Both the position numbers and the translations under genes were made by a program. From the NCBI GenBank assembly GCA_049967655.1, contig JBMFSH010000014.1, positions 1-64,000 on the forward strand: 64,000 nucleotides of DNA. The letters are read 5' to 3'. The stretch is from Acidobacteriota bacterium (GTDB taxonomy: Bacteria > Acidobacteriota > UBA4820 > DSQY01). Positions 24,000-62,662 of the stretch are shown piece after piece. Numbering within the stretch: position 1 is the stretch's first letter; each line of letters begins with the position of its first letter. The notes under the pieces were generated by a model that saw only the letters and a program-made list of their open reading frames with translations, did not search any database and was not told the origin of the DNA.

Positions 24000-24005
24000 G
24001 GGCTC

Positions 24006-45180: not shown

Positions 45181-45379
45181 GGGGGCTCGCCGCCTCACCA
45201 TCGGCGGGTACGCCTTCGGGTTTCACGCCAAGCCGAGAACATCCAGGAACATTGATGCGTGGGTGGACCCCACGGAGGAAAACGCCCGCCGAGTCTCGAC
45301 CGCCCTCCGCGCGGTGTTGGGGAGAAGGCAAGCGCGGGCTGCGAAGCGATTCAACCCAAGAAAGAAAGGAAAGCCATGA
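45116..45379 (+). pseudogene. Truncated nucleotidyltransferase-family gene
   Basis: NRDFRDL...IGGYAFGFHAKPRTSRNIDAWV (the DxD motif reads NID); ends after about 87 aa. Confidence 0.6.
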
Positions 45380-46557
45380 GCCACTACACCATCGTATCCA
45401 TGCCCGGGGACGGCATCGGAAAGGTCGTCCTCCCCGAGGCGATCCAGATCCTGAAGAAGGTGGGATTTTCGGCCGACTACGTCCACGCCGACATAGGCTG
45501 GGACTTCTGGTGCCGCGAGGGCAACGCTCTGCCGGACCGCACCGTGAAGCTCCTGGAGCAGCACAAGCTCGGCCTCTTCGGGGCTATCACGAGCAAGCCC
45601 AACAAGGCGGCCCTCGCCGAGCTCGATCCCCAGCTCCAAGGCAAGGGCTTGGTCTACTTCAGCCCCATCGTGGCCATGCGCCAGAGGTTCGATCTCGACC
45701 TCTGCGTGCGGCCCTGCCGCTCCTTCCCGGGCAATCCCCTGAACTTCATCCGCAAGAGGGACGGGGGCTTCGAGGAGCCGAAGGTGGACGTGGTCATCTT
45801 CCGCCAGGGAACCGAGGGCTCCTACGCCGGAGTCGAGTGGACCAATCCTCCCAAGCAGGTCCACGACGCCTTCTCGACCCACGCCAAGTTCAAGGGCTTC
45901 ACCGGCGTCAGGGGCGAGGACCTGGCCATCTCCACCCGCATCGTGACCAGGGAGGCCACAAGGCGCGTTATCCGGGAGGCCTTCGAGTACGCCCGAAAGT
46001 TCGGCTACAAGAGCGTGACCGTGGCGGAGAAGCCCAACGTGCTGCGCGAGACCTCGGGCATGTTCGAGGAGGAGGCCAAGACCATCGCGAAGGAGTACCC
46101 GGGCATCGCCCTCTGGTCGGTGAACATCGACGCCATCATGATGTGGCTCACCAAAAACCCCGAGGAGTACGGCGTCTTCGTCTGCGAGAACCTCTTCGGC
46201 GACATCCTGTCGGACGGCTTCGCGGGCCTCGTGGGCGGCCTGGGCTTCGCCTGCTCCGGCAACATCGGACGGGAGTACGCCGTCTTCGAGCCCACCCACG
46301 GGAGCGCTCCCAAGTACGAGAAGCTCAACCCCTCCATCGTGAACCCCATCGCCATGATCCTCTCGGCCGCCATGCTCTGCGACCACGTGGGGGAGAAGGA
46401 GAAGGGCGAGCGCATCCGCAACGCCGTGGCCGAGGTGGTGAGGGAGGGCAAGGTCCGCACCTACGACATGCTGCGCATACCCGGCGGCCCCGAGGTCTTC
46501 GGGCAGGGCGCCTGCAGCACCCAGCAGATGACCGAGGCCATCCTGGCGAAGATGTAA
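45376..46557 (+). CDS. Isocitrate/isopropylmalate dehydrogenase family protein, NADP-type signature
   Basis: PGDGIG, KPNV, NLFGDILSD, FEPTHGSAPKY, RTYD. Confidence 0.92.
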   Translation: MSHYTIVSMPGDGIGKVVLPEAIQILKKVGFSADYVHADIGWDFWCREGNALPDRTVKLLEQHKLGLFGAITSKPNKAALAELDPQLQGKGLVYFSPIVAMRQRFDLDLCVRPCRSFPGNPLNFIRKRDGGFEEPKVDVVIFRQGTEGSYAGVEWTNPPKQVHDAFSTHAKFKGFTGVRGEDLAISTRIVTREATRRVIREAFEYARKFGYKSVTVAEKPNVLRETSGMFEEEAKTIAKEYPGIALWSVNIDAIMMWLTKNPEEYGVFVCENLFGDILSDGFAGLVGGLGFACSGNIGREYAVFEPTHGSAPKYEKLNPSIVNPIAMILSAAMLCDHVGEKEKGERIRNAVAEVVREGKVRTYDMLRIPGGPEVFGQGACSTQQMTEAILAKM

Positions 46558-46699
46558 CCGCCTAACGCCTCAAACCGGCGGCCACGCGGGAGGCCGTCTC
46601 CACGGCTCGGGCCAGGACCGATCGCATCTTGCCGTCCGAGACGGCGGCCCACATTTCTCCAAGCCCCGCACCAGCGAGACGATCTAAAACATGGCCCAC

Positions 46700-48994
46700 T
46701 TACCTCGTCCAGTTTACCGTAACAGTACCTCCATCAGGGTTCACCAGCTCGATGGGCACGGAGACACTAACCGGGAAGAGCGCCTTGAGGGATGCGCCGC
46801 CCTTGATGACCAAGTGCGCGCTGCTCTTGGGGGCCAGGTTCGTCCATCTGGTCCCCGCAATGAAGACCTGGATTCCGGGTTGGAGATTGGATCCCCTGAT
46901 ATTGAGGCGGAAGGGCGCCGTGAGTTTGGTCACGGAAATTACGACGGGCGGCTGCACCACCACGGCGACGGTATAATTCGCGCTGCCCGTACAGCCGTTC
47001 GCGTCGGTGGCCGTGACCGTGAAGGCGGAAGTGCCCGCTGCCGAGGGCGTGCCCGAGAGGTAGCCACCCGAAGAGAGGGCCAGCCCCTCGGGCAGGTTGC
47101 CCGAGGTGACCGCGAAGGCATACGGCCCGGCCCCGCCGCTGGCGGAGATCGTCTGGCTGTAAGCCGTACCCACCGTGCCGTTGGACAGGCTGGATGGAGA
47201 CAGCGCAATGGCGGGGCAGAGGGTCACGGTGGCGACGGCGGGGTACTCCGGGCAGAGCCCGACATCGTCCACGTACATGGAGACCGAGGCGTTAGGCGTC
47301 CCGTCGTGGTAGACCCAGAACCAGGCGGCGATGGTCCGGCCCGCATAGGAAGAGAGATCACAATAGACGGGTGTCCACGCTTGTCCGTTGCTGTCCTCAA
47401 ACATGGCCCACGCCAAAACATTACCTTGGTTGTTCGCGAGAACTGCGGCTTGGCTGTCATCAGGGCTAGTTCCTTGAAGGAGCGGATAGCACCAGAAAAG
47501 GAGGGAAGTGGGTGTCGTGGGTACGGCGAAGGACTGCCCAAGCTCCGCCCACCCTTGGGCGCCTCCGCCTTCGCCGGCGAACAGGTAGGCTGAATAGGCG
47601 CCGCTATGGGCTTGACTGGAAGAGGCCACGGGGGGCGCCCCGCCACCGGACTGCGAGGGAGTCCAATCGGTCAGCCCGCTTTCAAAGCCTCCATTGGGAA
47701 GAAGCACCGGCGGGCCCGGGGGCAGGATGGAAACAGGCGGGGCGAGACTGGCGGTGGATTGGCCGGTCCACAGGTTTACCACGGCAAAGCTCGTGATCTG
47801 GCCGACTTGGGTGCCGTTGTACCCGTTGGTAACCGAGAGGGAAAAGCTGCCCTGCCCAGAGGGCGCGGCCAGGTCCGAAATATCCACCCAAACGGGATTG
47901 GGCGGAGCGGAAAGACCGAGGTTGCGGCTGGAGGGATCGGCCCAGGAGAAGAGATGCCACAAGGGGATCGTCGCGCTTCCATTGTTAAGGGTCAGGGCCA
48001 GATCCCGAAACTGCGGGTAGTTGATCTGGAAGACCGCCGCATACGAAGGGCTGCCACTCTTCACTTGGAAATAGGTGACGTAGCCCTGGAAAATCGTGTT
48101 ATTTGAATCCGTCACCGCCTGGTACGAGAGCCAGTAGTAGCCTTGGTCTCCCCAGCCCGTTCCCCAGGAATTCACGCACCGAAAAGCCCCCACGCCATCG
48201 TCCGTCACGTGGTTGTCGTCGTAACCGATGATCGTTGTTCCGTGACCACCTACGTTATTCCCGGTTACATCTGCCAAGCAGTAGTTGTCATTGTAGCTGG
48301 AGATATACATAAAGTTGTTGTAGACGTTGATCGCAGCAAAGCCGATGTTGCCTTGAGCGAGCCACTGCTTGACCGCATCGAGCCCGCCGGGCTGCGTGGT
48401 GGACACCCACGTCACGCTGTTGGGGAGGACCCTGTAGCTCATCGCTTCCTTGTAGGCACTTTCGGAGGGCCAGGCCGTGTCGCTCTGGTCCGTGTAGGGC
48501 ATTTGGTCCAGGGTTGCGCAGCCCAGGGTCGAGAGCAGTTGCGTCGCATCGCTTGGATAGCTCCCGCTATCTGGGACGAAGTGGTCCTGGTCGTAAATGT
48601 AGGCGGGGCTCATGATCTGGCTCGCGCTCGTGGGCGTCCAGTTATGGGCCTTGGCCTCCATATAAGTCATGGTGTAGTAGCCCGCGGCCCATGCCACACA
48701 CGAACCCTGCACGCCCTGGTCCCCCACCGGGGGCAGGTAGGCGGTGTTGATGACGGAGGAGGGCTGCGCGGGCGCCGCCTCCGCCAGGGCCTTTGTGCTA
48801 AGTTCGTGCCAGCCCGGGATCGTTCGCGGGTCCTGGTAGATGAGCCCCATGCCGTGGAGCTTGCCATCCTCAGCTCGCACTACGGCGTGCCGCGGCGCCT
48901 GCGGCCGCCGGGCCTGCGCCAAAACCCCCAGCGAAGCAATTACCGTCAGCACCAGCCAGAAACTCATCCGCACAACCGGGCTTCTTGCCTTCAT
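46700..48994 (-). CDS. Secreted papain-family (C1A) cysteine peptidase with CBM-like and Ig-like domains
   Basis: Signal peptide; DQGVQGSCVAW, GGH..IIGYDD, NSWGTGWG; NGGFESG; He_PIG-like GGAGPY..GNLPEGL..SGTP. Confidence 0.9.
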   Translation of the reverse strand: MKARSPVVRMSFWLVLTVIASLGVLAQARRPQAPRHAVVRAEDGKLHGMGLIYQDPRTIPGWHELSTKALAEAAPAQPSSVINTAYLPPVGDQGVQGSCVAWAAGYYTMTYMEAKAHNWTPTSASQIMSPAYIYDQDHFVPDSGSYPSDATQLLSTLGCATLDQMPYTDQSDTAWPSESAYKEAMSYRVLPNSVTWVSTTQPGGLDAVKQWLAQGNIGFAAINVYNNFMYISSYNDNYCLADVTGNNVGGHGTTIIGYDDNHVTDDGVGAFRCVNSWGTGWGDQGYYWLSYQAVTDSNNTIFQGYVTYFQVKSGSPSYAAVFQINYPQFRDLALTLNNGSATIPLWHLFSWADPSSRNLGLSAPPNPVWVDISDLAAPSGQGSFSLSVTNGYNGTQVGQITSFAVVNLWTGQSTASLAPPVSILPPGPPVLLPNGGFESGLTDWTPSQSGGGAPPVASSSQAHSGAYSAYLFAGEGGGAQGWAELGQSFAVPTTPTSLLFWCYPLLQGTSPDDSQAAVLANNQGNVLAWAMFEDSNGQAWTPVYCDLSSYAGRTIAAWFWVYHDGTPNASVSMYVDDVGLCPEYPAVATVTLCPAIALSPSSLSNGTVGTAYSQTISASGGAGPYAFAVTSGNLPEGLALSSGGYLSGTPSAAGTSAFTVTATDANGCTGSANYTVAVVVQPPVVISVTKLTAPFRLNIRGSNLQPGIQVFIAGTRWTNLAPKSSAHLVIKGGASLKALFPVSVSVPIELVNPDGGTVTVNWTR

Positions 48995-49230
48995 GGCGAT
49001 ACCCCCTGTCTCAACAGGAGTGACGTTCCCGTTCTCACCCCCGCCCGCTTGGTTTGGTCCATTTCACTGCTACGTGGCACGACTATCGGCCGAATGGCAG
49101 CACGCCGCCATTCCGCGGCTTGCTTTCGCGATTCCCGAATTTGAAAGAAGGCCACCGCAGCCAATGCAAACGTTCCAATAGCTACAAGAAGGTTTATGAC
49201 TACATCAAGGGTCATGAGACAGGCCTCCAT
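48991..49230 (-). CDS. Short TM-helix ORF, possibly a fragment
   Basis: One TM helix followed by QIRESRKQ; overlaps the peptidase start. Confidence 0.35.
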   Translation of the reverse strand: MEACLMTLDVVINLLVAIGTFALAAVAFFQIRESRKQAAEWRRAAIRPIVVPRSSEMDQTKRAGVRTGTSLLLRQGVSP

Positions 49231-49432
49231 GGCTGCCGTATGAAAGTATCGGGCATCCTTCTTGGTCCACTCTTTCCGCTACGCTCGAAAAGCATCCGCG
49301 GCGATCCCCAGTGACCGGAATACGGACCGGTAATCGGCAGCGCTAGTACTGTTCTTAAAACAGTAGGCCCTTTTTTCACCCCGTCCAGCTTCGGCGGCTC
49401 AGTGACACCCCCGGTGGGGAGCGGGGGATGGT

Positions 49433-50185
49433 TCACCGAGCATAGGCCGACACGGTAAGCTGCTGGGGCAGAGGAAGGGCGGCGTCGAAAGACTGCACAT
49501 CTGTAACCCTGAGGGGAACCTCCCGTTGCACCCAGACACTCGCGTGTTCGCTCTCTGCTAGCCGGATGCCGTCTTGGTCGTAATATCGAAAGATCACCCT
49601 TGGTATGTCTACTTGCGGCCATCTTGTTGCAATCCGCGCCGTTCCAACGAAGCGCCTCTCGCCGATTCCACCGCCGGCTGGCACCAGAGACACGTCGTAA
49701 ATTTGCACGGCTCGTCTAAGTTTCGGAGGCATGGAGGTCACAGAAAAGGTGAAGCGGCAGACGACCTTAATGGCTGAGATATTTGTCGCAAGTGGCCAGG
49801 ACGGAGAGCCGGAAGCCGTGAAGTAAGCCTTCTCATGAGGAGCAAGGTCAAAAACAGTATTGCTGGAGATGAAAGGGTAGCCTTCCAATCGTGTACCGTC
49901 CGGGGCATAGGCCGCGAAATGAGCTTCGGCATCCAGGTATACGTGTGTCTTGTTTTCGGCCACCACACCATATTCCAGCGTTCCCAAAGAGGCTACTTAG
50001 GGTTTGAGCCAACACTTGGGTTGAGTCAACTGTTGGAGGATTAGGGGAGAAGGGACGACTGGGCGAGTCTCCAGGGGCGGCAACGGTCCGTTTGCAGCGC
50101 ACCCTGCGGCGAACCCAGCGCAAAGAGCGAGGGCGCCCGGTAACTCAGCGATGAGAGCTAGGCGGATCAAGACTTTTTTTGGCAT
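49433..50185 (-). pseudogene. Lipoprotein gene interrupted by one in-frame TAA
   Basis: ORFs 49997-50185 (lipobox AAGC) and 49433-49987 share a frame and are separated by the stop at 49997-49999. Confidence 0.65.
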
Positions 50186-50461
50186 GATTGCCGCTCCTTC
50201 TTGACGCGTGCTGCGAAGCGCAACCGGGGGACGATCCTGCGTCTCTGGCTGCGGGACCTTCTAAGTATAGTACTCCGTGCCCTGAGACGGGAAAGAAGCG
50301 AGAGAGGGCCCGGTCGAGGGTGGGTGGCTCATCCCGTCCTCCTCTCGGCAGGCTTTCGTAACGCAGCGCCACCTTGGAAGAGCCAGGGCTTATCGTTTGA
50401 GCGCGCGAGGCTTTCGTGCCAGAATGGATCGCTGCGGGGGCTTCACCCGGGAGGAGGAGAC

Positions 50462-51034
50462 ATGACTCGGAATGAGATCGCGGACCTCTTGCAGCCCTGG
50501 ATCGGGCGCATCGGAGATGAGGATTTGCGGGAGAAGGTGCTGGAGGCCTGGGAGCTGGCCCTCTCGCGGAGCGGCTACAAGAGCGCCGCCGATCTGCGGA
50601 GGATGCCCTTCACGCTGCTCACCGACTGCAAGGGGATCAGCTTCGTCGAGCACACGCTGGCGGTCACGGCCGGCGCGGTGGGGCTGGCGCAGGCCCAGAT
50701 GAGCCACTATGGCCGCCTGCCCTATGAAATCGACATGGACCGGCTCGTTGCGGGAGGACTCCTGCACGACGTGGGCAAGCTCCTGGAGATCGAGCCCGAC
50801 GGGAAGGGCGGCCACCGCAAGAGCCGCAGCGGCACCTGCATGCGCCACCCCATCTCGGGGGCCGCGCTGGCCGCCGAGGTGGGCCTTCCCGAGGAGGTGA
50901 TCAACTGCATCGCCTGCCACGCCAAGGAGGGCGAGGGGCGCCCACAAACCGTGGAGACAGTTCTCATCCACCAAGCCGACTACGCCACCTTCGACCCCCT
51001 CGTCATGCTCCAGAAGGGAACCTTGATTCTTTGA
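50462..51034 (+). CDS. HD-domain (HDIG-type) phosphohydrolase
   Basis: EHT...LLHDVGK...RH..SG...CH...AD; SD GGAGGAG. Confidence 0.9.
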   Translation: MTRNEIADLLQPWIGRIGDEDLREKVLEAWELALSRSGYKSAADLRRMPFTLLTDCKGISFVEHTLAVTAGAVGLAQAQMSHYGRLPYEIDMDRLVAGGLLHDVGKLLEIEPDGKGGHRKSRSGTCMRHPISGAALAAEVGLPEEVINCIACHAKEGEGRPQTVETVLIHQADYATFDPLVMLQKGTLIL

Positions 51035-51045
51035 ATCACATTTGA

Positions 51046-51199
51046 ACCACAGAGGCGCAGAGATACAGAGGAAGACGGTTGAGATGTGGCGGCAATGTCG
51101 CGCGGGAAGGTTCGAGATAGAGACGAAGGCTTTACGGCGCAGCGCTTCTTGTCTTGGCCATTGAGGCCTCTTTTCTCCGAGTCTCTGTGTCTCTGTGGT
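51046..51199. repeat. Inverted-repeat element, copy 2
   Basis: ACCACAGAGGCGCAGAGATACAGAG...CTCTGTGTCTCTGTGGT. Confidence 0.9.
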
Positions 51200-51223
51200 T
51201 GAGACCTCCTTGGGGGACGATGC

Positions 51224-53062
51224 ATGCCGATGACGATGATCGAGAAGATCCTGGCCGCGCACTCGGGGAGCGAGTGTGTGGCGCCGGGGGAGATCGTGGA
51301 TGTGGCCATCGATGCCCGGGTGGCCCGGGACTTCGGGGGGGCCAACGTGGTGAAGAACCTCTTGGACCACGGGCTGTCGGTGGCCGACCCGTCGCGCACC
51401 TTCTTCACCTTCGACTGCAACCCCACCGGCTCCGACCAGAAGTACGCCGAAAACCAGCAGCGGTGCCGCCTCTTCGCCCGGGAGCGGGGGATCCGGGTCT
51501 TCGACATCGACGCGGGCATCGGCACCCACCTGGCCATCGACGAAGGGCTCGCCTGGCCCGGCTCCACCTTCGTCTCCACCGACTCCCACGCCAACATCCT
51601 CGGCGCCATCGGCGCCTTCGGGCAGGGGATGGGGGACCAGGACATCGCCGCCGCCTGGGCCTTCGGCAAGGTCTGGTTCAAGGTGCCGGCCACGGTGAGG
51701 ATCGAGCTGTCGGGCCACCCGGCTCCCGGGGCCTCGCCGAAGGACGTGGGGCTGGCGCTCCTGCGACACTTCGGCGCCAACGGCCTGCTGGGCTGCGCGG
51801 CCGAACTCTACGGCGGCTACACCGAATCCCTCGACCTGGCGGGCCGGATCACCATCGCCTCCCTCGCCACCGAAATGGGGGCGATCATCCTTCTCTTCCC
51901 GCCCAGCGAGGCGGTCATCGCCCACTGCCGAAAGGCCACGGGGCGTGAGGACTGGCGGCCCGTCACGGCGGAGTCCGGCGCTGCCTACGTCCGATCGGAG
52001 GTGGTGGACCTCGCGGGGCTCGGCCCCATGATGGCGCGGCCCGGCCACCCGGAGGACGTGGTGGAGCTGGAGAGCGTGCGCGGCCGGAAAATCGATTCGG
52101 TCTTCATCGGCTCCTGCACCAACGGCCGCTACGAGGACCTGGAGGAGGCGGCTCGGGTCCTCAGGGGCCGGAAGGTGGCTCCGGGCGTGGTTCTCAAGAT
52201 CGTTCCCACGACCGACGCCATGTGGCGCCGCGCCATGGCGGAGGGCCTCTTCGACCTGTTCAAGAGGGCCGGCGCCCTTATCTCTAACGCCGGCTGCGGA
52301 GGCTGCGCCGCGGGCCAGGTGGGCCAGAACGGACCGGGCGAGGTGACCGTCTCCACGGGCAACCGGAACTTCGCCGGCAAGCAGGGCAAGGGCGAGGTCT
52401 ACCTGGCGAGCCCGGCCGTGGCGGCCGCCTCCGCCGTGGCGGGATTTCTCACCGACCCCGAACACATCCCGGAGAAACCGGCCCTCTTCTCCCGTGGCGC
52501 GGTCTCCGGCAGCCGCGAGGCGGCGGGCGAGGGCGCCCGCCCCGCACCCCCTTCCGGCACCGCCGCCCCCGGCCGCGAGCGGCCGCTGGTGGTCACGGGG
52601 CGGGTCTGGGTCATCCGGAAGGACAACATCGACACCGACATGATCTTCCACAACCGGCACCTGGCCATCACGAAGCTGGAGGAGATGGCCCCGTACGCCT
52701 TCGGCAACCTCGCGGGCTGGGAGGATTTTGCACAAAAAGCGCGGCCCGGCGACATCGTGGTGACGGGGGCCAACTTCGGGGCGGGTTCCTCGCGCCAGCA
52801 AGCCGTGGACTGCTTCAAGGCCCTCGGCATCGCCGCCATCGTCGCGAAGAGCTTCGGGGCCATCTACGAGCGCAACGCCATCAACGCGGCGCTCCCGATC
52901 GTGGTCAGCGACCTGGTGGAAACGGATATCCTGGACGGCGAAGAGATCACCGTGGACTTCGCGGCGGGGCGCATCCTCCGCCGAGGCGGGCGCGAAGTGA
53001 AGGCCCAGCCCTGGCCGGAGGTGCAGCTCCAGACCTACCTCCGCGGCGGCCTGCTGGGGTGA
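51224..53062 (+). CDS. Fused LeuC-LeuD-type aconitase-family hydratase
   Basis: DSH, GSCTNGR, GCGGC, NRNF, then a linker and swivel domain (DNIDTD, NFGAGSSR). Confidence 0.92.
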   Translation: MPMTMIEKILAAHSGSECVAPGEIVDVAIDARVARDFGGANVVKNLLDHGLSVADPSRTFFTFDCNPTGSDQKYAENQQRCRLFARERGIRVFDIDAGIGTHLAIDEGLAWPGSTFVSTDSHANILGAIGAFGQGMGDQDIAAAWAFGKVWFKVPATVRIELSGHPAPGASPKDVGLALLRHFGANGLLGCAAELYGGYTESLDLAGRITIASLATEMGAIILLFPPSEAVIAHCRKATGREDWRPVTAESGAAYVRSEVVDLAGLGPMMARPGHPEDVVELESVRGRKIDSVFIGSCTNGRYEDLEEAARVLRGRKVAPGVVLKIVPTTDAMWRRAMAEGLFDLFKRAGALISNAGCGGCAAGQVGQNGPGEVTVSTGNRNFAGKQGKGEVYLASPAVAAASAVAGFLTDPEHIPEKPALFSRGAVSGSREAAGEGARPAPPSGTAAPGRERPLVVTGRVWVIRKDNIDTDMIFHNRHLAITKLEEMAPYAFGNLAGWEDFAQKARPGDIVVTGANFGAGSSRQQAVDCFKALGIAAIVAKSFGAIYERNAINAALPIVVSDLVETDILDGEEITVDFAAGRILRRGGREVKAQPWPEVQLQTYLRGGLLG

Positions 53063-53072
53063 GCAAAGGCCA

Positions 53073-53224
53073 ACCACAGAGGCACAGAGGCCCAGAGGAA
53101 GACTTTTAAGATGTGGCGGCGACGTCGCGCGGGAAGGTTCGAGATAGACGAAGGCTTTACGGTGCAGCGCTTCTTGTCCTGACCATTGAGGCCTCTTGTC
53201 TCCGTGCCTCTGTGTCTCTGTGGT
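53073..53224. repeat. Inverted-repeat element, copy 3 (interior nearly identical to copy 2)
   Basis: Same termini; shared interior AGATGTGGCGGC...GGGAAGGTTCGAGATAG...CATTGAGGCCTCTT. Confidence 0.9.
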
Positions 53225-53246
53225 GAGATTCTCTTTGGAGTTCTGT

Positions 53247-54659: not shown

Positions 54660-54677
54660 GAAAAAAGAGGTCGTTCG

Positions 54678-55169: not shown

Positions 55170-55305
55170 ACCACAGAGGCACCGACACAGAGGAACAGGG
55201 CCGAATGGCGGCGAAAGATTGCCTTCGAAGCGGAAAATCAGGACTATCCTCTGGTTTTGTCGTCTTCGGGGAATCGCTTTCTCTGTGCCTCTGTGTCTCT
55301 GTGGT
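55170..55305. repeat. Inverted-repeat element, copy 5
   Basis: Starts immediately after the TGA stop. Confidence 0.9.
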
Positions 55306-55324
55306 GAATCCTTAGGGGGATCCG

Positions 55325-56536
55325 ATGGGAACGGTGGCTGAGGCGGGACGGAGGGGGGAGAAGATCCGGTCGGACTGCTGGGTGCGGGTGGAGCCGAAGG
55401 CGCGCGGCGGCCTGAAGCTGTCGGTGACGACGAAGGTCGAGGCCATGTACGGCGACGCGGTGCGCGCCACGTGCGCGAAGGCGCTGGAGTCCCTTGGCGT
55501 GAAGCACGCCGCGGTGACCGTGGAGGACTTCGGCGCTCTCGACTTCGTTCTCATGGCCCGGGTGGAGACCGCCGTGAAGCGGGCCGGCCTCGCCGAAGGC
55601 CACGCCTGTCTACCCGAGCCTGGGCCGGGCTTGGGCGCCAAGGCCCTCCGGGAGCGCTTCCGCCGCTCGCGCCTCTACCTTCCGGGCAACGAGCCCAAGT
55701 TCTTCCTCAACGCGGCGCTCCACGAACCCGACGGGGTGATCCTGGACCTCGAGGATTCGGTGGCGCCGGCCGAGAAGGACGCGGCCCGGATCCTTGTGCG
55801 CAACGCCCTGCGGGCCGTGGACTTCGGCTCGTGCGAGCGGACGGTGCGCATCAACCAGGGCGAGCGGGGCCTTCTGGACGTGGAGGCGGTGGTGCCGCAG
55901 AACGTGCACCTGCTCCTCATCCCCAAGGTCGAATCGGCCGAGCAGGTGCGGGTCGTAGACGAGCGGGCGGAGGAGGTCCGCAGGGCCTCGGGGTTCAAGG
56001 CGCCGGTTCTCCTCATGCCCATCATCGAGAGCGCCCTCGGCTGCTTCCGGGCGCTGGAGATCGCCACGGCCAGCCCCAACGTAGTGGCTCTCACCATCGG
56101 CCTGGAGGACTACACGGCGGACATCGGCGCTCCGCGCACGCCCGAGGGCCGCGAGTCCTTTTGGGCGCGCTCCGTGGTGGTGAACGCCGCCCGCGCCGCC
56201 GGCGTCACGCCCATCGACACGGTCTTCTCCGACGTGTCGGACATGGAAGGGCTGCGCGCCGCGTGCCTCGAAGCCAAGTCCCTCGGCTTCGAGGGCAAGG
56301 GCTGCATCCACCCGCGCCAGGTGCCCGTGGTTCACGAGGCCTTCGCGCCGAGCGCCGACGAGATCGAGCGGGCCCGCCGCATCGTCCTGGCCTTCGAGGA
56401 GGCCGAGCGCCAGGGGCTCGGCGTGGTGGCCCTCGGCTCCAAGATGATCGACCCCCCCGTCGTCAAACGCGCCCTGCGCACCGTGCGCATGGCCGAAGCC
56501 CTGGGGTTGCTACCCAAGGACTGGAGAAAAAGCTAA
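55325..56536 (+). CDS. citE: CitD (acyl carrier)-CitE (citryl-CoA lyase-like) fusion
   Basis: N-terminal CitD-like ...SDC...YG...VEDFGALDFVLMARVETAVKRA; CitE motifs RRSRLYLPGN, LDLEDSV, IPKVE, GKGCIHPRQ, MIDPP. Confidence 0.9.
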   Translation: MGTVAEAGRRGEKIRSDCWVRVEPKARGGLKLSVTTKVEAMYGDAVRATCAKALESLGVKHAAVTVEDFGALDFVLMARVETAVKRAGLAEGHACLPEPGPGLGAKALRERFRRSRLYLPGNEPKFFLNAALHEPDGVILDLEDSVAPAEKDAARILVRNALRAVDFGSCERTVRINQGERGLLDVEAVVPQNVHLLLIPKVESAEQVRVVDERAEEVRRASGFKAPVLLMPIIESALGCFRALEIATASPNVVALTIGLEDYTADIGAPRTPEGRESFWARSVVVNAARAAGVTPIDTVFSDVSDMEGLRAACLEAKSLGFEGKGCIHPRQVPVVHEAFAPSADEIERARRIVLAFEEAERQGLGVVALGSKMIDPPVVKRALRTVRMAEALGLLPKDWRKS

Positions 56537-56690
56537 CCACAGAGGCACAGAGACAGGGAGGAGGAGCATCGGGTTGTGGCAAGAGAGACCTTTGGGAGAG
56601 AGACGAACAGAAGAGAAGCGCACGTGGATCAGGAGTGTCTTTCTCTTCCACGAGAGAGATCTTTTCTCTGTGCCTCTGTGTCTCTGTGGT
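56536..56690. repeat. Inverted-repeat element, copy 6
   Basis: Starts on the last base of the TAA stop. Confidence 0.9.
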
Positions 56691-56708
56691 TCAGTCAGGG
56701 GTTGAGCG

Positions 56709-56804
56709 ATGGCTAAGGCGGAATTGAAGAAGAACGCGCTGGGGCGGCTTGTGCCGGGGATGAACCGAAGCCGGAGCGCCGGGGAAGGAGGGGCGGTTTG
56801 CTGA
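56709..56804 (+). pseudogene. Duplicated 5' fragment of citF (31-codon mini-ORF)
   Basis: MAKAELKKNALGRLVP matches MAKVELKKNALGRLVP at 61100. Confidence 0.88.
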
Positions 56805-59800
56805 TCCTCCACGCGGCCTTCGAGGCTCCCCACCTCCTGGTATGGGGCGAAGGGGAGGCGGAGGAATCTTCGCCGGCGAAGCGGCGCGGGCGGCCGCCCA
56901 AGGTATGGCGGCCCTTGCCCCATCCCTTTTCGGCTCCCGCGGCTCTCCTGGCGGAGGCGGCCTCGCCCGCGGGCGAGTCTCTCGCCCTTACAAAGACCCG
57001 CGTTGTTTTGGCCACCGTCTGGCTGCCCACGTCATCGGGCAAACCCCTGCCTTCCTCCCCTCTGCTGGGTGAGATCCGCGGTGAGGCCGTCCCGGTGGTG
57101 CTTACGGCGTGGTCCGTTCCCGCGCTTCCGCTGGATGGGCGGGCCATGGTGGAATGGCTGGCGGCTTGCATGGACAAGGCTTCGCTGGCCCCGGGCGTTC
57201 TTCTCGGAACCGATGTGGCCTTCTGGTGTGAAGCGCTGAGGCTGGCAGGGGCCATCGTGGCGCGGGGGCAAGTTCTGCCCGCCGTGGAGAGGAACGGCGA
57301 GGCCCTTCGGGCCGCCTGGAAGTCTCTCCTCCTGGGTTCGTGGCCGTCGCGAGCGGCCACCCTCGCGGCGCGCATGCCGCCGTCTGCCCGCGCCCTCTCG
57401 CGCGAGGCGGCTCCCTCTCCGCCGGAGGCCCGCCCCGCCTCCGTGCTGGAGGCCTTTCTCGATGGCGCCGTGGACGCGCTCTTTCGCCCGGATGCGCCCC
57501 AAGAATCCCAGCCGCGAAGCCGTCTATCCGGGCGGCTAGCCTTCTCCGGGAACCACCACGAGGCATGGCTGAACTCTTTGAAGGGTCACGACCCCTTCCT
57601 GGCCCTCGGGCTCACCGAAGGCGAAACCCTGCGCGAGGAGGTCGCGCGCTGGCGCGAGCCCCTGGCGGCCATGCAATCCTCGCCGGTGCGTCTTTGCTTC
57701 CGCCTCCAAGAGCCGCCCAAGGGGGTCCATCGGGATGCCCAGCCCGGGGATCAAGAGTGGCGCGTGGACTATCTCCTCCATCCCCACGAGGATCCCAGCC
57801 TGCTGGTGCCCGTGGAGGACGTCTTTCGCCCCAGGACTCGCGCGAGCCGGGCCATGGCGCGTCTCGGGGCCGACCCGAAGGCCTCAGCCCTGGCTTTCCT
57901 CGGGCAGGCCTCGGCGCTCTGCCCGTCAATCGCTGCGAGCCTCAAGGTGCCCAGGCCGAGCGGCCTGTCGCTGGATGCGGCGGGAGCCTACGAGTTCCTG
58001 GCCCGCACGGCGCCGCTGCTGGAACAGGCCGATTTCGGCCTGTTTCTTCCCGCCTGGTGGACCGGGGCGGGTGCCCGCGAGCGCCTGGCCCTCACGGCGC
58101 ACGCCAAGGTCCCGGTCCTCCGCGCGTCGCAGGGGCTCTCGCTGGAGAGCCTGGTCCAGGTGGAGTGGTCCGCGGCGCTGGGGGGCGAGCCCCTCTCGTA
58201 CCGGGAGCTTTCGGACTTGGCGGCCCTCAAGGCGCCGCTGGTGCGGCTGCGGGGCCAATGGGTCACGGTGGATTCAGAGCAGATCCAGAAGGCTCTGGCC
58301 TTGATGAAGGACGGCAAGGCGGCGAAGACCACGGTGCGCGACCTCATGGCCATGTCGCTGGGCGCCGCCTCTCCGGCGGGGCTCCCCGTGGCCTCGGTGG
58401 CGGCGAAGGGCGAGCTGGCGGCCATGCTGGATACATTGGCGGGGGGCGAGACCGCGGTGAAGGAGCTGCCTCCGCCCGGCGGCTTCTCCGGCACCCTCCG
58501 GCCCTACCAGCTCCGCGGCTACGCGTGGCTGGCCTCCCTGGCGAAGTGGGGGCTGGGCGCCTGCCTGGCCGACGACATGGGCCTGGGCAAGACGATTCAA
58601 GCCCTGGCCATGATTCAGCGGGATTGGGAGGGGGGCGAGCGGGACCCGGTCCTCCTCGTCTGCCCCACCTCGGTCGTGGGAAACTGGCAGCGGGAGGCCG
58701 CGAGGTTCACTCCCGGCCTGCCGGTTCTCGTGCACCACGGCGCGGGGAGGCGCTCCAAGGCGGCCTTCGAGAAAGAGGCGCGCCGCACGGCCCTCGTCAT
58801 CACGAGCTACGGGCTCCTCCACCGGGAGGCCGAAACCCTGGCAGCCGTTCCGTGGCGCGGCGTCATCCTCGACGAGGCGCAAAACATCAAGAACCCGCAG
58901 GCCAAGCAGGCCCAGGCCGCCCGCGCGCTCAAGGCCGGTTACCGCCTCGCCCTCACGGGCACTCCCGTGGAGAACCACGTGGGCGACCTCTGGGCGCTCA
59001 TGGCCTTCCTGAATCCGGGGCTCCTCGGAACCCAGGCCGCCTTCCGGCGCACCTTCTTTCTCCCCGTCCAAACGGGATCGGACCCGGAGGCCGCAGCGCG
59101 CCTCAAGCGCGTCACGGGACCCTTCATCCTCAGGCGCCTCAAGACCGACAAGGCCGTCATCAGGGACCTACCCGAGAAGCAAGAGATGAAGGTCTTCTGC
59201 ACCCTCACGAAGGAGCAGGCCAGCCTCTACCAGGCCGTCCTGGACGACGTGGGCCGTGAGCTGTCCAAGGCCCGCGGCATCCAGCGCAAGGGCCTCGTCC
59301 TCTCCACGCTCCTGAGGCTCAAGCAGGCGTGCAACCACCCCGCGCATCTGCTGGGGGACGGCTCGTCGCTGCGCGGGCGGTCGGGCAAGCTGGCACGCCT
59401 GGAGGAGATGCTCGAGGAGGTGCTCGCCGCGAACGACAAGGCCCTGGTCTTCACGCAGTTCACCGAAATGGGGACCTTGCTGCAGCGGTACCTGCAAGAG
59501 ACCTTCGGCCGGGAGGTGCTCTTCCTGCACGGCGGGACGCCTCGTGGGCGGCGCGACACGATGGTGGAGCGGTTCCAGCAAAGGGATGGGCCGCCCCTCT
59601 TCCTCCTGTCGCTCAAGGCCGGCGGCACGGGCCTCAATCTGACGGCCGCGAGCCACGTCTTCCACTTCGACCGCTGGTGGAACCCCGCGGTGGAAAACCA
59701 GGCCACCGACCGCTCCTTCCGCATCGGGCAGAAGAAAAACGTCCAGGTACACAAATTCGTCTGCGCGGGGACGCTGGAGGAGAAGATCGACGCCATGATC

Positions 59801-59920
59801 GAGCGGAAAAAGGCCGTGGCCCAGAGGGTTGTGGGCGCCGGCGAAACCTGGCTAACGGAACTGAACAACGACGAGCTCCGGGCTCTCTTCGCCCTGGAGC
59901 CCGGCGCCGTGGCGGAGTGA
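56798..59920 (+). CDS. SNF2-family helicase/ATPase
   Basis: LRPYQ, LADDMGLGKT, DEAQ, LTGTPVEN, GGTGLNLT, DRWWNPAVENQATDR. Confidence 0.95.
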   Translation: MLILHAAFEAPHLLVWGEGEAEESSPAKRRGRPPKVWRPLPHPFSAPAALLAEAASPAGESLALTKTRVVLATVWLPTSSGKPLPSSPLLGEIRGEAVPVVLTAWSVPALPLDGRAMVEWLAACMDKASLAPGVLLGTDVAFWCEALRLAGAIVARGQVLPAVERNGEALRAAWKSLLLGSWPSRAATLAARMPPSARALSREAAPSPPEARPASVLEAFLDGAVDALFRPDAPQESQPRSRLSGRLAFSGNHHEAWLNSLKGHDPFLALGLTEGETLREEVARWREPLAAMQSSPVRLCFRLQEPPKGVHRDAQPGDQEWRVDYLLHPHEDPSLLVPVEDVFRPRTRASRAMARLGADPKASALAFLGQASALCPSIAASLKVPRPSGLSLDAAGAYEFLARTAPLLEQADFGLFLPAWWTGAGARERLALTAHAKVPVLRASQGLSLESLVQVEWSAALGGEPLSYRELSDLAALKAPLVRLRGQWVTVDSEQIQKALALMKDGKAAKTTVRDLMAMSLGAASPAGLPVASVAAKGELAAMLDTLAGGETAVKELPPPGGFSGTLRPYQLRGYAWLASLAKWGLGACLADDMGLGKTIQALAMIQRDWEGGERDPVLLVCPTSVVGNWQREAARFTPGLPVLVHHGAGRRSKAAFEKEARRTALVITSYGLLHREAETLAAVPWRGVILDEAQNIKNPQAKQAQAARALKAGYRLALTGTPVENHVGDLWALMAFLNPGLLGTQAAFRRTFFLPVQTGSDPEAAARLKRVTGPFILRRLKTDKAVIRDLPEKQEMKVFCTLTKEQASLYQAVLDDVGRELSKARGIQRKGLVLSTLLRLKQACNHPAHLLGDGSSLRGRSGKLARLEEMLEEVLAANDKALVFTQFTEMGTLLQRYLQETFGREVLFLHGGTPRGRRDTMVERFQQRDGPPLFLLSLKAGGTGLNLTAASHVFHFDRWWNPAVENQATDRSFRIGQKKNVQVHKFVCAGTLEEKIDAMIERKKAVAQRVVGAGETWLTELNNDELRALFALEPGAVAE

Positions 59921-59927
59921 TGCGGCC

Positions 59928-60956
59928 ATGAGCACGTGGGACTACTGGGGCTACAAGCCCTCTCGCCCGAGGGAGGCCAAGCACGGCATCAAGGCGAAAA
60001 CCTCGCGGGGCGCCTTCGGCACCACCTGGTGGGCCAAGCGGTGGATTGCCGTCCTGGAGAGCTTCGACATCGGCGCCCGCCTGGGCCGGGGGCGCTCCTA
60101 CGCCCGGCGCGGCCAGGTGACCCAGGTCGGGATCGAGCAGGGGGAGGTGAAGGCCAAGGTGCAGGGCTCGCGGCCGAGGCCCTACGACGTCGTCATCCGC
60201 CTCAAGCCCTTTTCGGACAAGGAGCGCCAGGCCCTCGGCCAGGCCCTGGGAAGAGAGGCCCTCTTCGCGGCCAAGCTGCTCGCGGGCGAGATGCCCGAGG
60301 GGATCGAGGAGCTCTTCGCCGAAGCGGGCGCGCCCCTCTTCCCCGGTAGGAGCCAGGACCTCAAGACCGAGTGCTCCTGCCCCGACTGGTCCAACCCCTG
60401 CAAACACATCGCCGCCGTCTACTACCTGATGGCCGAGGAGTTCGACCGGGACCCGTTTCTCCTGCTCAAGCTGAGGGGGCTGACCCGCGAAGAGCTCCCG
60501 GCCCTCGTGGGCTCCCCAGCGCCTAAGGCCAAAGCCTCGACCCGCCAACGCCGCGCGCCCGCGCCCGAGAGCCCCGCGCCCGAGCCTTCCGTCCCGCTCC
60601 CTTCTGACCACGGCGCCTTCTGGGGAACGCAAGGCCCTGCGGTCCCGCTGGCGCTGCCCGTCTCCAGTGCCGCCGAGGTGCCCGAAGCCCTTCTCAAGCG
60701 GCTCGGAGGCTTTCCCTTCTGGCGCGGAGAGCGTCCCCTCGAGGAGGCCCTCGCCCCAACCTACCGCGCCGCCGCCCAGCGCGGCCTCGCCCTCCTCGCA
60801 GGAGAGAATCCCTTCACCGAGGGTACCGAAGGGAGCAACGGGCCCTGTGCCATGACGGGGCATGGTAATCTGAAGGGGAACGAAGGGAACGACGCGGAGG
60901 TCCGAGCCTTCGCAAGGTCCATCCAGCGCCGGGGACCCAGAGGAGGCCGCCGGTGA
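59928..60956 (+). CDS. SWIM zinc-finger protein
   Basis: RLGRGRSYAR, VQGSR, CSCPDWSNPCKHIAA. Confidence 0.93.
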   Translation: MSTWDYWGYKPSRPREAKHGIKAKTSRGAFGTTWWAKRWIAVLESFDIGARLGRGRSYARRGQVTQVGIEQGEVKAKVQGSRPRPYDVVIRLKPFSDKERQALGQALGREALFAAKLLAGEMPEGIEELFAEAGAPLFPGRSQDLKTECSCPDWSNPCKHIAAVYYLMAEEFDRDPFLLLKLRGLTREELPALVGSPAPKAKASTRQRRAPAPESPAPEPSVPLPSDHGAFWGTQGPAVPLALPVSSAAEVPEALLKRLGGFPFWRGERPLEEALAPTYRAAAQRGLALLAGENPFTEGTEGSNGPCAMTGHGNLKGNEGNDAEVRAFARSIQRRGPRGGRR

Positions 60957-61099
60957 ACGGGAGCGCTGGTTTTTTTCGACCGCCTCCAACGTTTGCCTGC
61001 CCACGCTTTCAGCTCAACCTAGCCGATCTGGACTTCCGTATGTGCCGCTTGGCAAAGAGTTTTTCTCCGCGTCTCTATGGTTCAATTAGGGGTTGAACG

Positions 61100-62662
61100 A
61101 TGGCTAAGGTGGAATTGAAGAAGAACGCGCTGGGGCGGCTGGTGCCGGCGGCGGTGAACGGAAGGAAGCAGGTGCCCTACCGGGGGGTGGACGGCTACGT
61201 GGCCAAGGGGCGCAAGGCCGCGCCGCCCATCGCGAGCGCGGCCAACTTCCCCGGCGACGGGGACAAGCGGGTCGGCTCGCTGGCCGAGGCGCTGGAGCTG
61301 TGCGGCCTTTCGGACGGCATGACCCTCTCCACGCACCACCACTTCCGCAACGGCGACCGGGTGGCGAACCTCCTCTTCGACACGGCGGCGAAGATGGGCA
61401 AGGAGGACCTCATGTGGTTCCCCTCCGCCTCCTTCCCCTGCCACGAACCCATCATCCAGCACATGGAGAAGGGCGTGGTCCACCACATCGAGGGCTCCAT
61501 GAACGGCCCCCTGGGGGACTACTGCACCGACGGAAAAATGCGGGGGCTCGGCGTCCTGCGCTCCCACGGCGGACGCTGGCAGGCCATCCAGGACGGCGAG
61601 GTGCACGTGGACATCGCCGTCATCGCGGCCCCCTGCGCCGATCCCTTCGGCAACGCCAACGGCGTCAACGGCCCCGCGGCCTGCGGGTCCTTGAACTTCG
61701 CGCTGGCCGACTCGCTCTACGCCGACAAAGTCATCGTGGTCACCGACCACCTGGTCCCCTTCCCGGCCATCCCCTGGCAGATCCAGGGCAACCACGTGGA
61801 CGCCGTAGTGGTGGTGGACAAGGTGGGCGACCCCTCCCAGATCGTCTCGGGCACCACGCAGATCACCAAGAGCCCCGACCGGCTTCTCCTCGCGGAGCTG
61901 GTGGCGCGCTTCGTGCGCGACGCCGGGATCCTGCGCGACGGCTTCTCCTTCCAGGCGGGGGCGGGGGGGACGGCGCTGGCCTTCGCCATCTACCTCAAAG
62001 AGATGATGAAGCGGGCGGGGGTGAAGGCGCGCTTCGTCCGCGGCGGCTCCACCAAGTACCTGGTGGAGATGCTCAACGAGGGGCTGTGCGACTACATCCT
62101 GGACGGCCAGACCTTCGACCTGGACGCCGTTCAAAGCATGCGCGACAACCCTCGCCACGTGGCCACCAGCCCCTTCACGAGCTACAACTACCACGGCAAG
62201 GGTTTCTTCGGCACCTTCGTGGACGCCGTGGTCCTCGGAGCCACGGAGGTGGACGTCCACTTCAACGCCAACGTGGTCACCCACTCCGACGGGCGCCTGC
62301 TCCACGGCATCGGCGGCTGGCAGAACTGCCTCTTCGCGGGCTGCACCATCCTCGCCGTGCCCGCCGTCCGCGACCGCATCCCCGTCATCGTGGACGAGGT
62401 CACCACACTCACCGGCCCCGGCGAGCTCATCGACGTGGTCGTCACCGAGCGCGGCATCGCCATCAACCCGCGCCGCCTCGACCTGTTGGAGGCCGTGAAG
62501 GGCAAAGGCTTGCCCATCCGCGATATCCGCGACATCCAGCGGGAGGTGGACCGGATGTGCGGGGGCAAACCCAGGCCGCCGCGGCGAGGCCGGGAGGCGG
62601 TGGCCGTGGTAAAGTGGGTGGACGGAACGGTCATGGACAGCGTCTGGAAGGTGGTTCGATAG
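61100..62662 (+). CDS. citF: Citrate lyase alpha subunit-like CoA/ACP transferase
   Basis: GLSDGMTLSTHHHFRNGD, RSHGGR, FQAGAGG, LGATEVD, GIGG, DVVVTERGIAINP. Confidence 0.93.
   Translation: MAKVELKKNALGRLVPAAVNGRKQVPYRGVDGYVAKGRKAAPPIASAANFPGDGDKRVGSLAEALELCGLSDGMTLSTHHHFRNGDRVANLLFDTAAKMGKEDLMWFPSASFPCHEPIIQHMEKGVVHHIEGSMNGPLGDYCTDGKMRGLGVLRSHGGRWQAIQDGEVHVDIAVIAAPCADPFGNANGVNGPAACGSLNFALADSLYADKVIVVTDHLVPFPAIPWQIQGNHVDAVVVVDKVGDPSQIVSGTTQITKSPDRLLLAELVARFVRDAGILRDGFSFQAGAGGTALAFAIYLKEMMKRAGVKARFVRGGSTKYLVEMLNEGLCDYILDGQTFDLDAVQSMRDNPRHVATSPFTSYNYHGKGFFGTFVDAVVLGATEVDVHFNANVVTHSDGRLLHGIGGWQNCLFAGCTILAVPAVRDRIPVIVDEVTTLTGPGELIDVVVTERGIAINPRRLDLLEAVKGKGLPIRDIRDIQREVDRMCGGKPRPPRRGREAVAVVKWVDGTVMDSVWKVVR

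Follow-up and report, generated by a model that had tools for sequence, protein, structure and literature searches.

The stretch of DNA analysed here (64,000 nucleotides; hereafter the window) corresponds to positions 1 to 64,000 of contig JBMFSH010000014.1, assembly GCA_049967655.1, from an Acidobacteriota bacterium. Between positions 45376 and 62662 it contains seven genes, all on the + strand, that might specify an uncharacterised tricarboxylate pathway. The window has a G+C content of ~68%; genes were chosen by their third-position GC bias and then scanned against Pfam and NCBIfam, which recovered the same seven genes, at the same coordinates, as an initial annotation made from the sequence alone. 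The first gene (45376-46557) codes for a β-decarboxylating dehydrogenase of the NADP (nicotinamide adenine dinucleotide phosphate) type, similar to isocitrate dehydrogenase (IDH) and homoisocitrate dehydrogenase (HICDH), and hereafter termed IDHl (Iso_dh, 257.5 bits). It is followed by genes for a small stand-alone HD-fold protein (50462-51034; PF01966, 47.5 bits), and for a fused LeuC-LeuD-type Fe-S hydratase termed AcnFus (51224-53062; Aconitase plus Aconitase_C domains; PRK00402 subfamily, 395.8 bits vs a cut-off of 385). A second hydratase is encoded in two genes, one for a LeuC/HacA-type large subunit (53247-54506; hacA_fam, 525.6 vs a cut-off of 385.7) and one for a LeuD/HacB-type small subunit (54678-55169; LEUD_arch, 163.4 bits; recognition loop PGRYTYTC). 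The last two genes specify a fusion of CitD, the acyl-carrier protein of citrate lyase, to CitE (55325-56536; PF06857, 70.9 bits, and PF03328, 176.1 bits), and a CitF-type acyl/coenzyme A (CoA)-transferase subunit (61100-62662; PF04223, 441.8 bits).

The co-occurrence of these genes in other genomes, on which the initial annotation depended, was checked by tblastn and found in many phyla. At least 507 relatives of the CitDE fusion are encoded in reference genomes, which represent many phyla; the best 80 of these relatives formed the locus set, in which a gene was scored as present when a window protein matched with E ≤1e-10 over at least half of its length. The 80 loci derive from Acidobacteriota, Methylomirabilis, Anaeromyxobacter, Aminicenantes, Phycisphaerae and other Planctomycetota, Bacteroidota, Ignavibacteria, Eisenbacteria, KSB1, Krumholzibacteria, Gemmatimonadota, Myxococcota, Fimbriimonadales, WOR-3 and others, and the order dehydrogenase, HD protein, hydratases, CitDE, CitF recurs among them. 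CitF lies after CitDE in 63 of the 73 loci with at least 1.8 kb of downstream sequence; where at least 6 kb were available upstream (50 loci), a hydratase was found in 32, the dehydrogenase in 25 and the HD gene in 21. CitDE stands by itself, or in most cases with CitF, in ten loci whose flanks are long on either side. Thirty other genomes carrying the cluster were also searched (31 carriers when the window's genome is counted). A full-length orthologue of the dehydrogenase was present in 21 of the 30 at 62-86% identity and in five more at 54-58%, a partial one was found in one, and there was none in G007, G024 and G025. All-against-all clustering of the open reading frames (ORFs) of the 80 loci revealed no other recurrent partner family on the + strand, and a Pfam search of 37 flanking ORFs from 11 loci rendered unrelated housekeeping genes and no conserved partner. 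The seven genes are a module conserved across phyla.

The dehydrogenase reached none of the NCBIfam equivalog cut-offs. Its best score was for the AksF2 homoisocitrate dehydrogenase model (262.5 vs a cut-off of 540), with lower values for AksF (254.4 vs 500), Icd (TIGR00183; 170.7 vs 567.3) and leuB (TIGR00169; 160 vs 353); its best solved relative was the HICDH of Thermus (191 bits). When 28 orthologues were aligned with the Icd and LeuB sequences of the annotated E. coli K-12 record, residues R119, R129, R153, Y160, K230, D283, D307 and D311 (E. coli numbering) were found in all 28, as were K344, Y345, V351 and Y391 of the NADP pocket; the R395 position was Lys or Arg, and that of R292 was Asn in 27 orthologues and Ser in the other. 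The catalytic, NADP-pocket and substrate-loop roles of these positions are presumed to be those of the corresponding residues of Icd. The motifs HGSAPKY and TYD, from which the initial annotation had read an NADP-type enzyme, were likewise invariant in the 28 orthologues, and with such a pocket the dehydrogenase is to be classed as NADP-type. The LeuB-like enzyme encoded on another contig of the same genome (C44) lacks the NADP-pocket residues. A proposed likeness of the SPIVAMR segment to fungal HICDH did not hold, however: the 22 matches to this segment among solved structures were almost all isocitrate dehydrogenases, mostly of the NADP type (SLNVAMRQ), plus one tartrate dehydrogenase, and the homoisocitrate dehydrogenase of S. 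pombe (3ty3) was not among them.

The substrate loop of the family reads SPIV(G/A/S/T)(L/M)R and is preceded by a family-specific insert of 14 residues. Within it Ser113 is kept, while Asn115 is replaced by an invariant Ile in the 28 orthologues; the Ser113 plus Asn115 pair for the γ-carboxylate of isocitrate is therefore incomplete. Hydrophobic residues (I, V) stand four and three positions ahead of R119, presumably as in isopropylmalate dehydrogenases. Arg85 of the Thermus HICDH, whose presumed role found no confirmation in a literature search, aligns with Val. Because of this last difference, and judging from the alignment, the pocket is not that of a textbook Thermus HICDH; nor is it a textbook isocitrate pocket.

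The two hydratases occupy separate slots that are filled by different families in different phyla. Variant clusters in Bacteroidota, Ignavibacteria and Phycisphaerae-type loci carry a fused aconitase-family protein beside a protein of the PrpD/MmgE family. The former, a Lys4-type enzyme, scored 844.3 bits for the homoaconitase equivalog TIGR00139 (cut-off 529.9), and its nearest Atlas cluster bears the name mitochondrial homoaconitase and contains both bacteria and Mucoromycota; the latter reached 97 bits for PRK09425 (cut-off 575). AcnFus was found with LeuC in 16 loci and the Lys4-type enzyme with PrpD in 13, whereas no locus combined PrpD with AcnFus or the Lys4-type enzyme with LeuC. Single hydratases were seen in other loci (AcnFus alone in eight, PrpD alone in five, LeuC alone in three), and one hybrid (L028) has the Lys4-type enzyme together with AcnFus and so links the two variants. 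This strict pattern of combinations defines a slot A, filled by LeuCD or the Lys4-type enzyme, and a slot B, filled by AcnFus or PrpD. The window shows the acidobacterial AcnFus plus LeuCD variant of the operon.

The recognition loops agree with this assignment to slots. That of the window LeuD and its orthologues, NTD(L/M)LFPG(K/R)YTYTC, shares PG(K/R)YTY with the loop of the Lys4-type enzymes, NTDGIYPGKYTY(I/V)DD, while AcnFus has a different one of its own, DTDMI(F/Y)HN(R/K)HLA(I/V)T. PG(K/R)YTY is lacking in five LeuD controls (those of the leu operons of E. coli, G003, G018 and G025, and the LeuD of contig C44 in the window's own genome), which carry none of the LeuD, Lys4-type or AcnFus loops. 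Homoaconitase activity in slot A is suggested by the score of the window LeuC, above the hacA_fam subfamily cut-off, and by the equivalog-level homoaconitase that fills the same slot elsewhere; AcnFus is predicted to be a homocitrate <-> cis-homoaconitate dehydratase. Fazius et al. 2012 (PMC3556520) reported that the fungal and Thermus homoaconitases only interconvert homoaconitate and homoisocitrate, the dehydration of homocitrate being left to a second enzyme, aconitase; they likened this case to the methylcitrate cycle, where PrpD works together with an aconitase. By analogy, the architecture of the module matches the same two-enzyme isomerisation, with what would be a dedicated enzyme for each half. 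The proposal in the initial annotation that each hydratase performs one half-reaction thus gains support both from the slot pattern and from that published biochemistry.

The lyase and transferase proteins resemble those of citrate lyase, although neither meets its equivalog. The CitE part shows 39% identity to E. coli CitE (TIGR01588, 276.2 vs a cut-off of 443.4), CitF shows 40% identity to its E. coli counterpart and lies slightly below the cut-off (TIGR01584, 478.8 vs 501.45), and the CitD part is 35% identical to E. coli CitD. In a gapless alignment of 80 carrier domains, the column of E. coli Ser14, which we take to be the prosthetic-group serine, holds Arg in 77 sequences, Lys in two and Gln in one; the columns that follow are Ser (80/80), Asp (80/80) and Cys (79/80), forming an R-S-D-C motif. 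Whether the carrier counts as lacking the serine thus hinges on a shift of one residue. Profile scans of the window detected no citC, citG, citX or leuA, nor a homocitrate synthase, as the initial annotation had said. This was also true beyond the window for the lyase helpers: CitG had no match in the window's genome or in the 30 other carriers, CitX had none in the window's genome (the only one searched for it), and CitC reached the TIGR00124 cut-off in none of the 30 carriers. A weak CitC-like match in the window's genome was CoaD (203.6 bits, vs 27.9 for CitC).

The HD protein has H64, D103, K106, H129, H153, H170 and D173 invariant in an alignment of 24 orthologues, though the His of the 'HD' pair is replaced by I or A in the variant clusters. 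Its AlphaFold model has a predicted local distance difference test (pLDDT) value of 89.8, and a Foldseek search of the PDB gave YhaM as the best match (template-modelling score 0.65). With respect to its function, the alignment, the model, the PDB search and the Atlas yielded a generic, YhaM-like HD fold only.

The contigs of the source genome, which is 99.3% complete, were searched for pathway and helper genes, as were the other carriers. No HMGL-family protein was found in 16 of the 31 carrier genomes, and five more have only 42-60-bit matches in 600-residue, carboxylase-like frames; 21 of the 31 therefore contain no LeuA, CimA, NifV or homocitrate-synthase-type enzyme. Citrate synthase was found in 25 of the 30 other carriers and, by our reading of the result table, a separate large aconitase in 23. 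Another IDH, dimeric or monomeric, was present in all but G006, G009, G010, G017 and G007; the last has no Iso_dh-family gene at all that we could find. G007, G009, G010, G017 and G027, which are of the WOR-3, Eisenbacteria, Aminicenantes and KSB1 types, show no aconitase-family genes other than those linked to the module.

The window's genome has a citrate synthase, AcnA, a PRK07229 aconitase and an NADP-dependent Icd. It also contains, on contig C8 (62.1-68.1 kb; locus L083), lysW, a homocitrate-synthase-like gene, lysX, lysY, lysZ and lysJ, and, on contig C44 (0.5-3.5 kb; locus L085), a second LeuB/LeuC/LeuD-like set, while no lysA, dapB or ilvC was found over cut-off. These genes make it likely that the organism produces lysine by the LysW aminoadipate route, with a synthase-based set that is not of the NADP type, and the gene content points to an inability to make branched-chain amino acids. 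Since a synthase-based LysW set is already there, the module would be a second, lyase-based and NADP-type set, which is the pattern expected of a pathway running in reverse.

Among the carriers, lysA (15 of 30) and dapB (18 of 31) exceeded their cut-offs without forming a pattern, whereas LysW reached its cut-off in one of 30 (one more was near). LysX did so in none of the five genomes without lysA that were tested, four of which have dapB. The idea that the module is the upper half of a LysW-type lysine synthesis was rejected as a general reading on these grounds. As a separate observation, G015, G021, G022, G028 and G030 have dapB over cut-off but no lysA (and all except G028 were also found to lack LysX); it seems that these organisms produce the diaminopimelate needed for their cell walls, while the final step from there to lysine is not recognisable.

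A different link with lysine came from L-lysine 6-transaminase (LAT, TIGR03251), which was over cut-off in 11 of the 31 carriers, from several phyla, compared with none of 14 control genomes; two further carriers have it in broken or split form. In a Myxococcales locus (L047), LAT lies at 2878-3723 on the - strand, ~0.9 kb upstream of the dehydrogenase gene, in a frame that appears broken. LAT forms a divergent pair with the gene for piperideine-6-carboxylate dehydrogenase in carriers from Bacteroidota and Ignavibacteria (L091, 3008-7345; L096, 3663-7327); the dehydrogenases scored 803.5 and 820.7 bits, respectively (cut-off 730), and in L096 an Rrf2 regulator is situated between the two genes. 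G006 also has this dehydrogenase at equivalog level. When Pfam was run on 41 of the 122 ORFs from 11 LAT loci, an aldehyde dehydrogenase was seen beside LAT in two of the seven loci scanned, and four further LAT loci, outside those scanned, have an ORF of the same size at that position. LAT and piperideine-6-carboxylate dehydrogenase would convert lysine to 2-aminoadipate in part of the carriers, which places 2-oxoadipate one transamination away.

The reading that we tentatively prefer, as a reasonable possibility rather than a probability, is that the module would interconvert 2-oxoadipate + CO2 + NADPH and 2-oxoglutarate + acetate via homoisocitrate, cis-homoaconitate and homocitrate, most likely working towards 2-oxoglutarate. 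The broader scheme of the initial annotation, in which a 2-oxoacid plus CO2 is linked through (homo)isocitrate and (homo)citrate to an acetyl unit plus a 2-oxoacid, is supported by the co-occurrence of the genes and the missing helpers. In the preferred version the dehydrogenase would carry out the reductive carboxylation of 2-oxoadipate to homoisocitrate. The slot A LeuCD-type enzyme, the equivalent of the fungal Lys4 homoaconitase, would then dehydrate homoisocitrate to cis-homoaconitate, and the slot B fused hydratase, replaced elsewhere by the PrpD-type dehydratase, would hydrate the latter to homocitrate. CitF would transfer homocitrate onto a thioester, of either the carrier domain or free CoA, and the CitE domain would cleave the homocitryl thioester into 2-oxoglutarate, with regeneration of the acetyl thioester and release of acetate.

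Gene content and sequence comparisons are the grounds from which we infer a substrate of the homocitrate type, a direction and a connection with lysine breakdown. The homocitrate series is favoured by the equivalog-level homoaconitase of slot A with its shared loop, the two-enzyme isomerisation, the replacement of Asn115 by Ile, and the possession by most carriers of TCA (tricarboxylic acid cycle) enzymes of their own. The chain-shortening direction is favoured by the NADP-type pocket in 28/28 orthologues, the separate synthase-based set in the window's genome, and the presence of LAT in 11/31 carriers; in addition, cleavage by citrate lyase is favoured at cellular concentrations. The module would probably lie downstream of lysine breakdown. 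A bolder version, possible though somewhat unlikely, is that a citrate-lyase-type complex devoid of CitC, CitG and CitX is a homocitrate lyase that closes a reversed upper half of the α-aminoadipate pathway; this would provide an anaerobic route for lysine carbon, from 2-oxoadipate into 2-oxoglutarate plus acetate, that spares ATP, thiamine and free CoA in more than 10, mostly uncultured, phyla, with a dedicated homocitrate dehydratase that Thermus and fungi lack. Searches of the open literature found no description of such a pathway or of a homocitrate lyase.

Several observations weigh against a homocitrate pathway of this kind. The window LeuD is closer to the small subunit of the M. jannaschii isopropylmalate isomerase (146 bits) than to that of its homoaconitase (118 bits), and does not have the Arg of the YLRT loop of the latter. 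The dehydrogenase retains Ser113, has a substrate loop most like those of NADP-dependent isocitrate dehydrogenases, and bears Val in place of the Arg85 of the Thermus HICDH; moreover, it is the sole IDH-family enzyme found in G006 (a complete chromosome), G009, G010 and G017. The 39-40% identity of CitE and CitF to a true citrate lyase, with CitF almost at the citF cut-off, goes in the same direction. With respect to lysine, LAT was not over cut-off in 20 of the 31 carriers, including the window's genome, which also lacks an equivalog-level piperideine-6-carboxylate dehydrogenase (392 vs 730 bits), and the enrichment in LAT is relative to 14 control genomes rather than to relatives free of the cluster. 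No transporter, regulator or aminoadipate aminotransferase was linked to the cluster in the clustering of the 80 loci or in the flanks of 11, and reductive carboxylation is uphill at standard conditions. Finally, neither a citrate synthase nor an evident other aconitase was found in G007, G009, G010, G017 and G027, genomes of uncertain completeness, and in these the module could simply be the citrate/isocitrate machinery.

This last point leads to the main rival, which we consider unlikely but by no means negligible: that the module is a dedicated citrate/isocitrate branch composed of an NADP-isocitrate dehydrogenase, hydratases that interconvert citrate and isocitrate, and an ATP-independent citrate lyase. 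It could run reductively, from 2-oxoglutarate to oxaloacetate and acetate, a course proposed for Ignavibacterium album, or oxidatively in organisms without citrate synthase. The substrate loop and cofactor pocket nearest to NADP-IDH, the scores and identities of CitE and CitF, and the carriers in which the module supplies the sole IDH-family enzyme or the only evident aconitases are all in keeping with it. So is the genome paper on I. album, where the CitF and CitE-CitD genes were read as an ATP-independent citrate lyase, perhaps belonging to an unconventional reverse TCA cycle (PMC3362086). However, a single aconitase is enough for citrate <-> isocitrate, yet two enzymes are kept in conserved slots; the alternative occupant of slot A is an equivalog-level homoaconitase, and the N115 position is an invariant Ile. 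Further, most carriers, like the window's genome, have a citrate synthase (25/30), a large aconitase (23/30) and an IDH apart from the module, and CitC and CitG are lacking in the carriers.

The homocitrate chemistry might instead run forwards, as the initial annotation proposed, with CitE condensing an acetyl thioester with 2-oxoglutarate, CitF releasing homocitrate as the carrier takes up a new acetyl group from acetate, and the hydratases and dehydrogenase leading on to 2-oxoadipate; the pair would thus be a thioester-sparing substitute for homocitrate synthase. CitE-family lyases can condense, malyl-CoA lyase being an example, and the 21/31 carriers without a LeuA/homocitrate-synthase-type enzyme, the housekeeping neighbours with no transporter or regulator, and the several carriers without lysA over cut-off (those with dapB mentioned above among them) would all fit with this direction. 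We nevertheless regard it as improbable. There is no evident use for 2-oxoadipate (LysW in 1/30 carriers, plus one near; LysX in 0/5), and the lysW cluster of the window's genome already includes a homocitrate-synthase-like gene. At cellular concentrations, free acetate is an unfavourable starting point for the condensation, and biosynthetic LeuB and HICDH enzymes are, as a rule, NAD-type.

It is still more doubtful that the substrate is another 2-hydroxy-tricarboxylate or dicarboxylate, such as the pairs 2-methylcitrate/2-methylisocitrate or citramalate/3-methylmalate, in which case the module might, for example, interconvert 2-oxobutyrate and pyruvate + acetate. Members of the PrpD family are known to dehydrate 2-methylcitrate, the slot B protein of PrpD type has a match to PRK09425 (97 bits vs a cut-off of 575), the window LeuD is overall nearest to the small subunit of isopropylmalate/citramalate isomerase, and the hydrophobic residues before R119 recall isopropylmalate dehydrogenase (a role again presumed). 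Yet the alternative slot A enzyme reaches the homoaconitase equivalog, the PG(K/R)YTY loop is unlike that of the LeuD proteins of true leu operons, and no PrpB, PrpC or CimA-type gene is linked to the module. Scarcely credible is a chance juxtaposition of ordinary LeuB and LeuCD with a classical citrate lyase whose helpers lie elsewhere, the outcome that would have undone the initial annotation: every gene does come from a well-known family, but the synteny extends across phyla, and both components were rejected when checked, the classical lyase because CitG and CitX are missing from the window's genome and CitG and CitC from all 30 carriers (with no citC, citG or citX in the window either), and the ordinary leucine genes because 21/31 carriers have no LeuA, the window's genome has no ilvC, and the leuB cut-off was missed (160 vs 353).

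The homocitrate module so proposed shares features with four known systems. As in the upper α-aminoadipate pathway of fungi and Thermus, a dehydratase and a homoaconitase-type hydratase are combined with a β-decarboxylating dehydrogenase; unlike that pathway, it has the CitDE/CitF lyase-transferase pair in the place of homocitrate synthase, an NADP-type dehydrogenase with no equivalent of Arg85, and as first dehydratase a dedicated fused LeuCD-type or PrpD-type enzyme rather than the aconitase of the TCA cycle. In addition, most carriers lack LysW or LysX, and the direction is probably reversed. With the citrate lyase of E. coli (citCDEFXG; EC 4.1.3.6) it has in common homologous CitF, CitE and CitD proteins and the gene order D-E-F. 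It differs in the fusion of CitD to CitE, in the lack of CitC and CitG from 30 carriers and of CitC, CitG and CitX from the window's genome, in the Arg or Lys at the Ser14 column followed by Ser-Asp-Cys, in missing the citE and citF equivalogs, and in being linked to hydratases and a dehydrogenase instead of a citrate carrier. In the variant clusters, removal and re-addition of water would be split between two proteins, one of the PrpD family and one of the aconitase family, as they are between PrpD and AcnB in the methylcitrate cycle; however, the module has neither the PrpC synthase nor the PrpB lyase, its PrpD-like protein is far below the prpD cut-offs (97 vs 575), and in the window the PrpD slot is held by the fused LeuCD-type hydratase. 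Lastly, the NADPH-dependent carboxylation of a 2-oxoacid, its isomerisation, and the cleavage of the product into acetate (or acetyl-CoA) and a shorter 2-oxoacid resemble the reductive TCA branch with citrate cleavage, from which the module would differ in a substrate predicted to be one methylene longer, an ATP-free cleavage and the use of two isomerisation enzymes.

Genes of the module are routinely annotated as 'citrate lyase' and 'isopropylmalate' enzymes, which leads to wrong reverse-TCA and leucine calls in metabolic reconstructions of the soil, sediment and bioreactor phyla that carry it. If the homocitrate reading were true, it would add to the known fates of 2-oxoadipate and lysine carbon in anoxic settings, and would reveal the first homocitrate-cleaving lyase, in a citrate-lyase-type complex that carries its acyl group differently. 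The clusters also illustrate how each half of an aconitase-type isomerisation can be taken over in nature by a non-orthologous enzyme. Relatives in culture (Ignavibacterium, Melioribacter) put the hypothesis within direct experimental reach. To this picture the window and its comparison add the AcnFus plus LeuCD variant, the hybrid locus L028, the coexistence of the module with a LysW/homocitrate-synthase lysine route, and the invariant Ser-Asp-Cys of the carrier.

The operon in the window is interrupted by two insertions, as the initial annotation had suspected. Both are real: neither block is present in the two closest reference loci (L002 and L003, ~90% identical to the window), where the genes are contiguous. 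The gap between the dehydrogenase and HD genes measures 3.9 kb in the window vs 82-650 bp in these two loci, and that between CitDE and CitF 4.6 kb vs 139-166 bp. Because the operon is contiguous without either block in L002 and L003, both insertions are judged from these alignments to be recent and lineage-specific. The first (46558-50413), delimited by its blastn breakpoints against L002 and L003, Pfam matches and a drop in GC, includes ~1.4 kb at 56-61% GC (64-72% in the surroundings). It encodes on the - strand (46700-48994) a 764-residue papain-like C1 protease with He_PIG/Big_9 immunoglobulin-like domains; its ORFs at 49212-49622 and 49433-49987 matched no Pfam family. The second (56798-60956, + strand) comprises genes for a SNF2-family helicase (56798-59920; 713.8 bits for the SCO1167/SCO6262 family, below the cut-off of 1200) and a SWIM zinc-finger protein (59928-60956), both assigned with Pfam.

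The SNF2-SWIM cassette is flanked by an 84-nt direct repeat on the + strand (56674-56757 and 61065-61148; 90% identity, spacing 4391 nt). What is duplicated is the end of a hairpin element together with the ribosome-binding region and the initial 16 codons of citF: the upstream copy contains an extra citF start codon followed by 16 codons, and the downstream copy overlaps the real citF start. Given this duplication of the 5'-end of citF, the cassette landed inside it, with a long target duplication that left citF intact.

The hairpin element belongs to a set of ~150-bp intercistronic inverted-repeat elements, each located in one spacer of the operon (51045-51200, 53072-53225, 54505-54660, 55169-55306 and 56535-56691). 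One arm, ACCACAGAGGCACAGAG, comes directly after a stop codon and the other, CTCTGTGCCTCTGTGTCTCTGTGGT, directly before the next start codon; the window contains 18 matches to the arm patterns vs 0.01 expected, and one of the operon spacers folds as a long hairpin (z = -3.3). Throughout the genome there are 64 arm matches and 14 paired elements, five of which are those of the operon; a further element of this type is found in the window at 24005-24156. The elements occupy the same sites in L003 but are absent from L002, L004 and L009. They may be similar to repetitive extragenic palindromes (REP) or miniature inverted-repeat transposable elements (MITE), or act as mRNA-processing elements.

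In the acidobacterial relative L009, the space between the dehydrogenase and HD genes is occupied (4516-5496) by a gene for a pyridoxal phosphate enzyme similar to cystathionine-β-synthase/cysteine synthase (361.6 bits, below the cut-off). Elsewhere in the window, positions 2-1601 contain an RVT_1 reverse-transcriptase fragment, truncated by the start of the window, followed by an IS200-like Y1 transposase gene.

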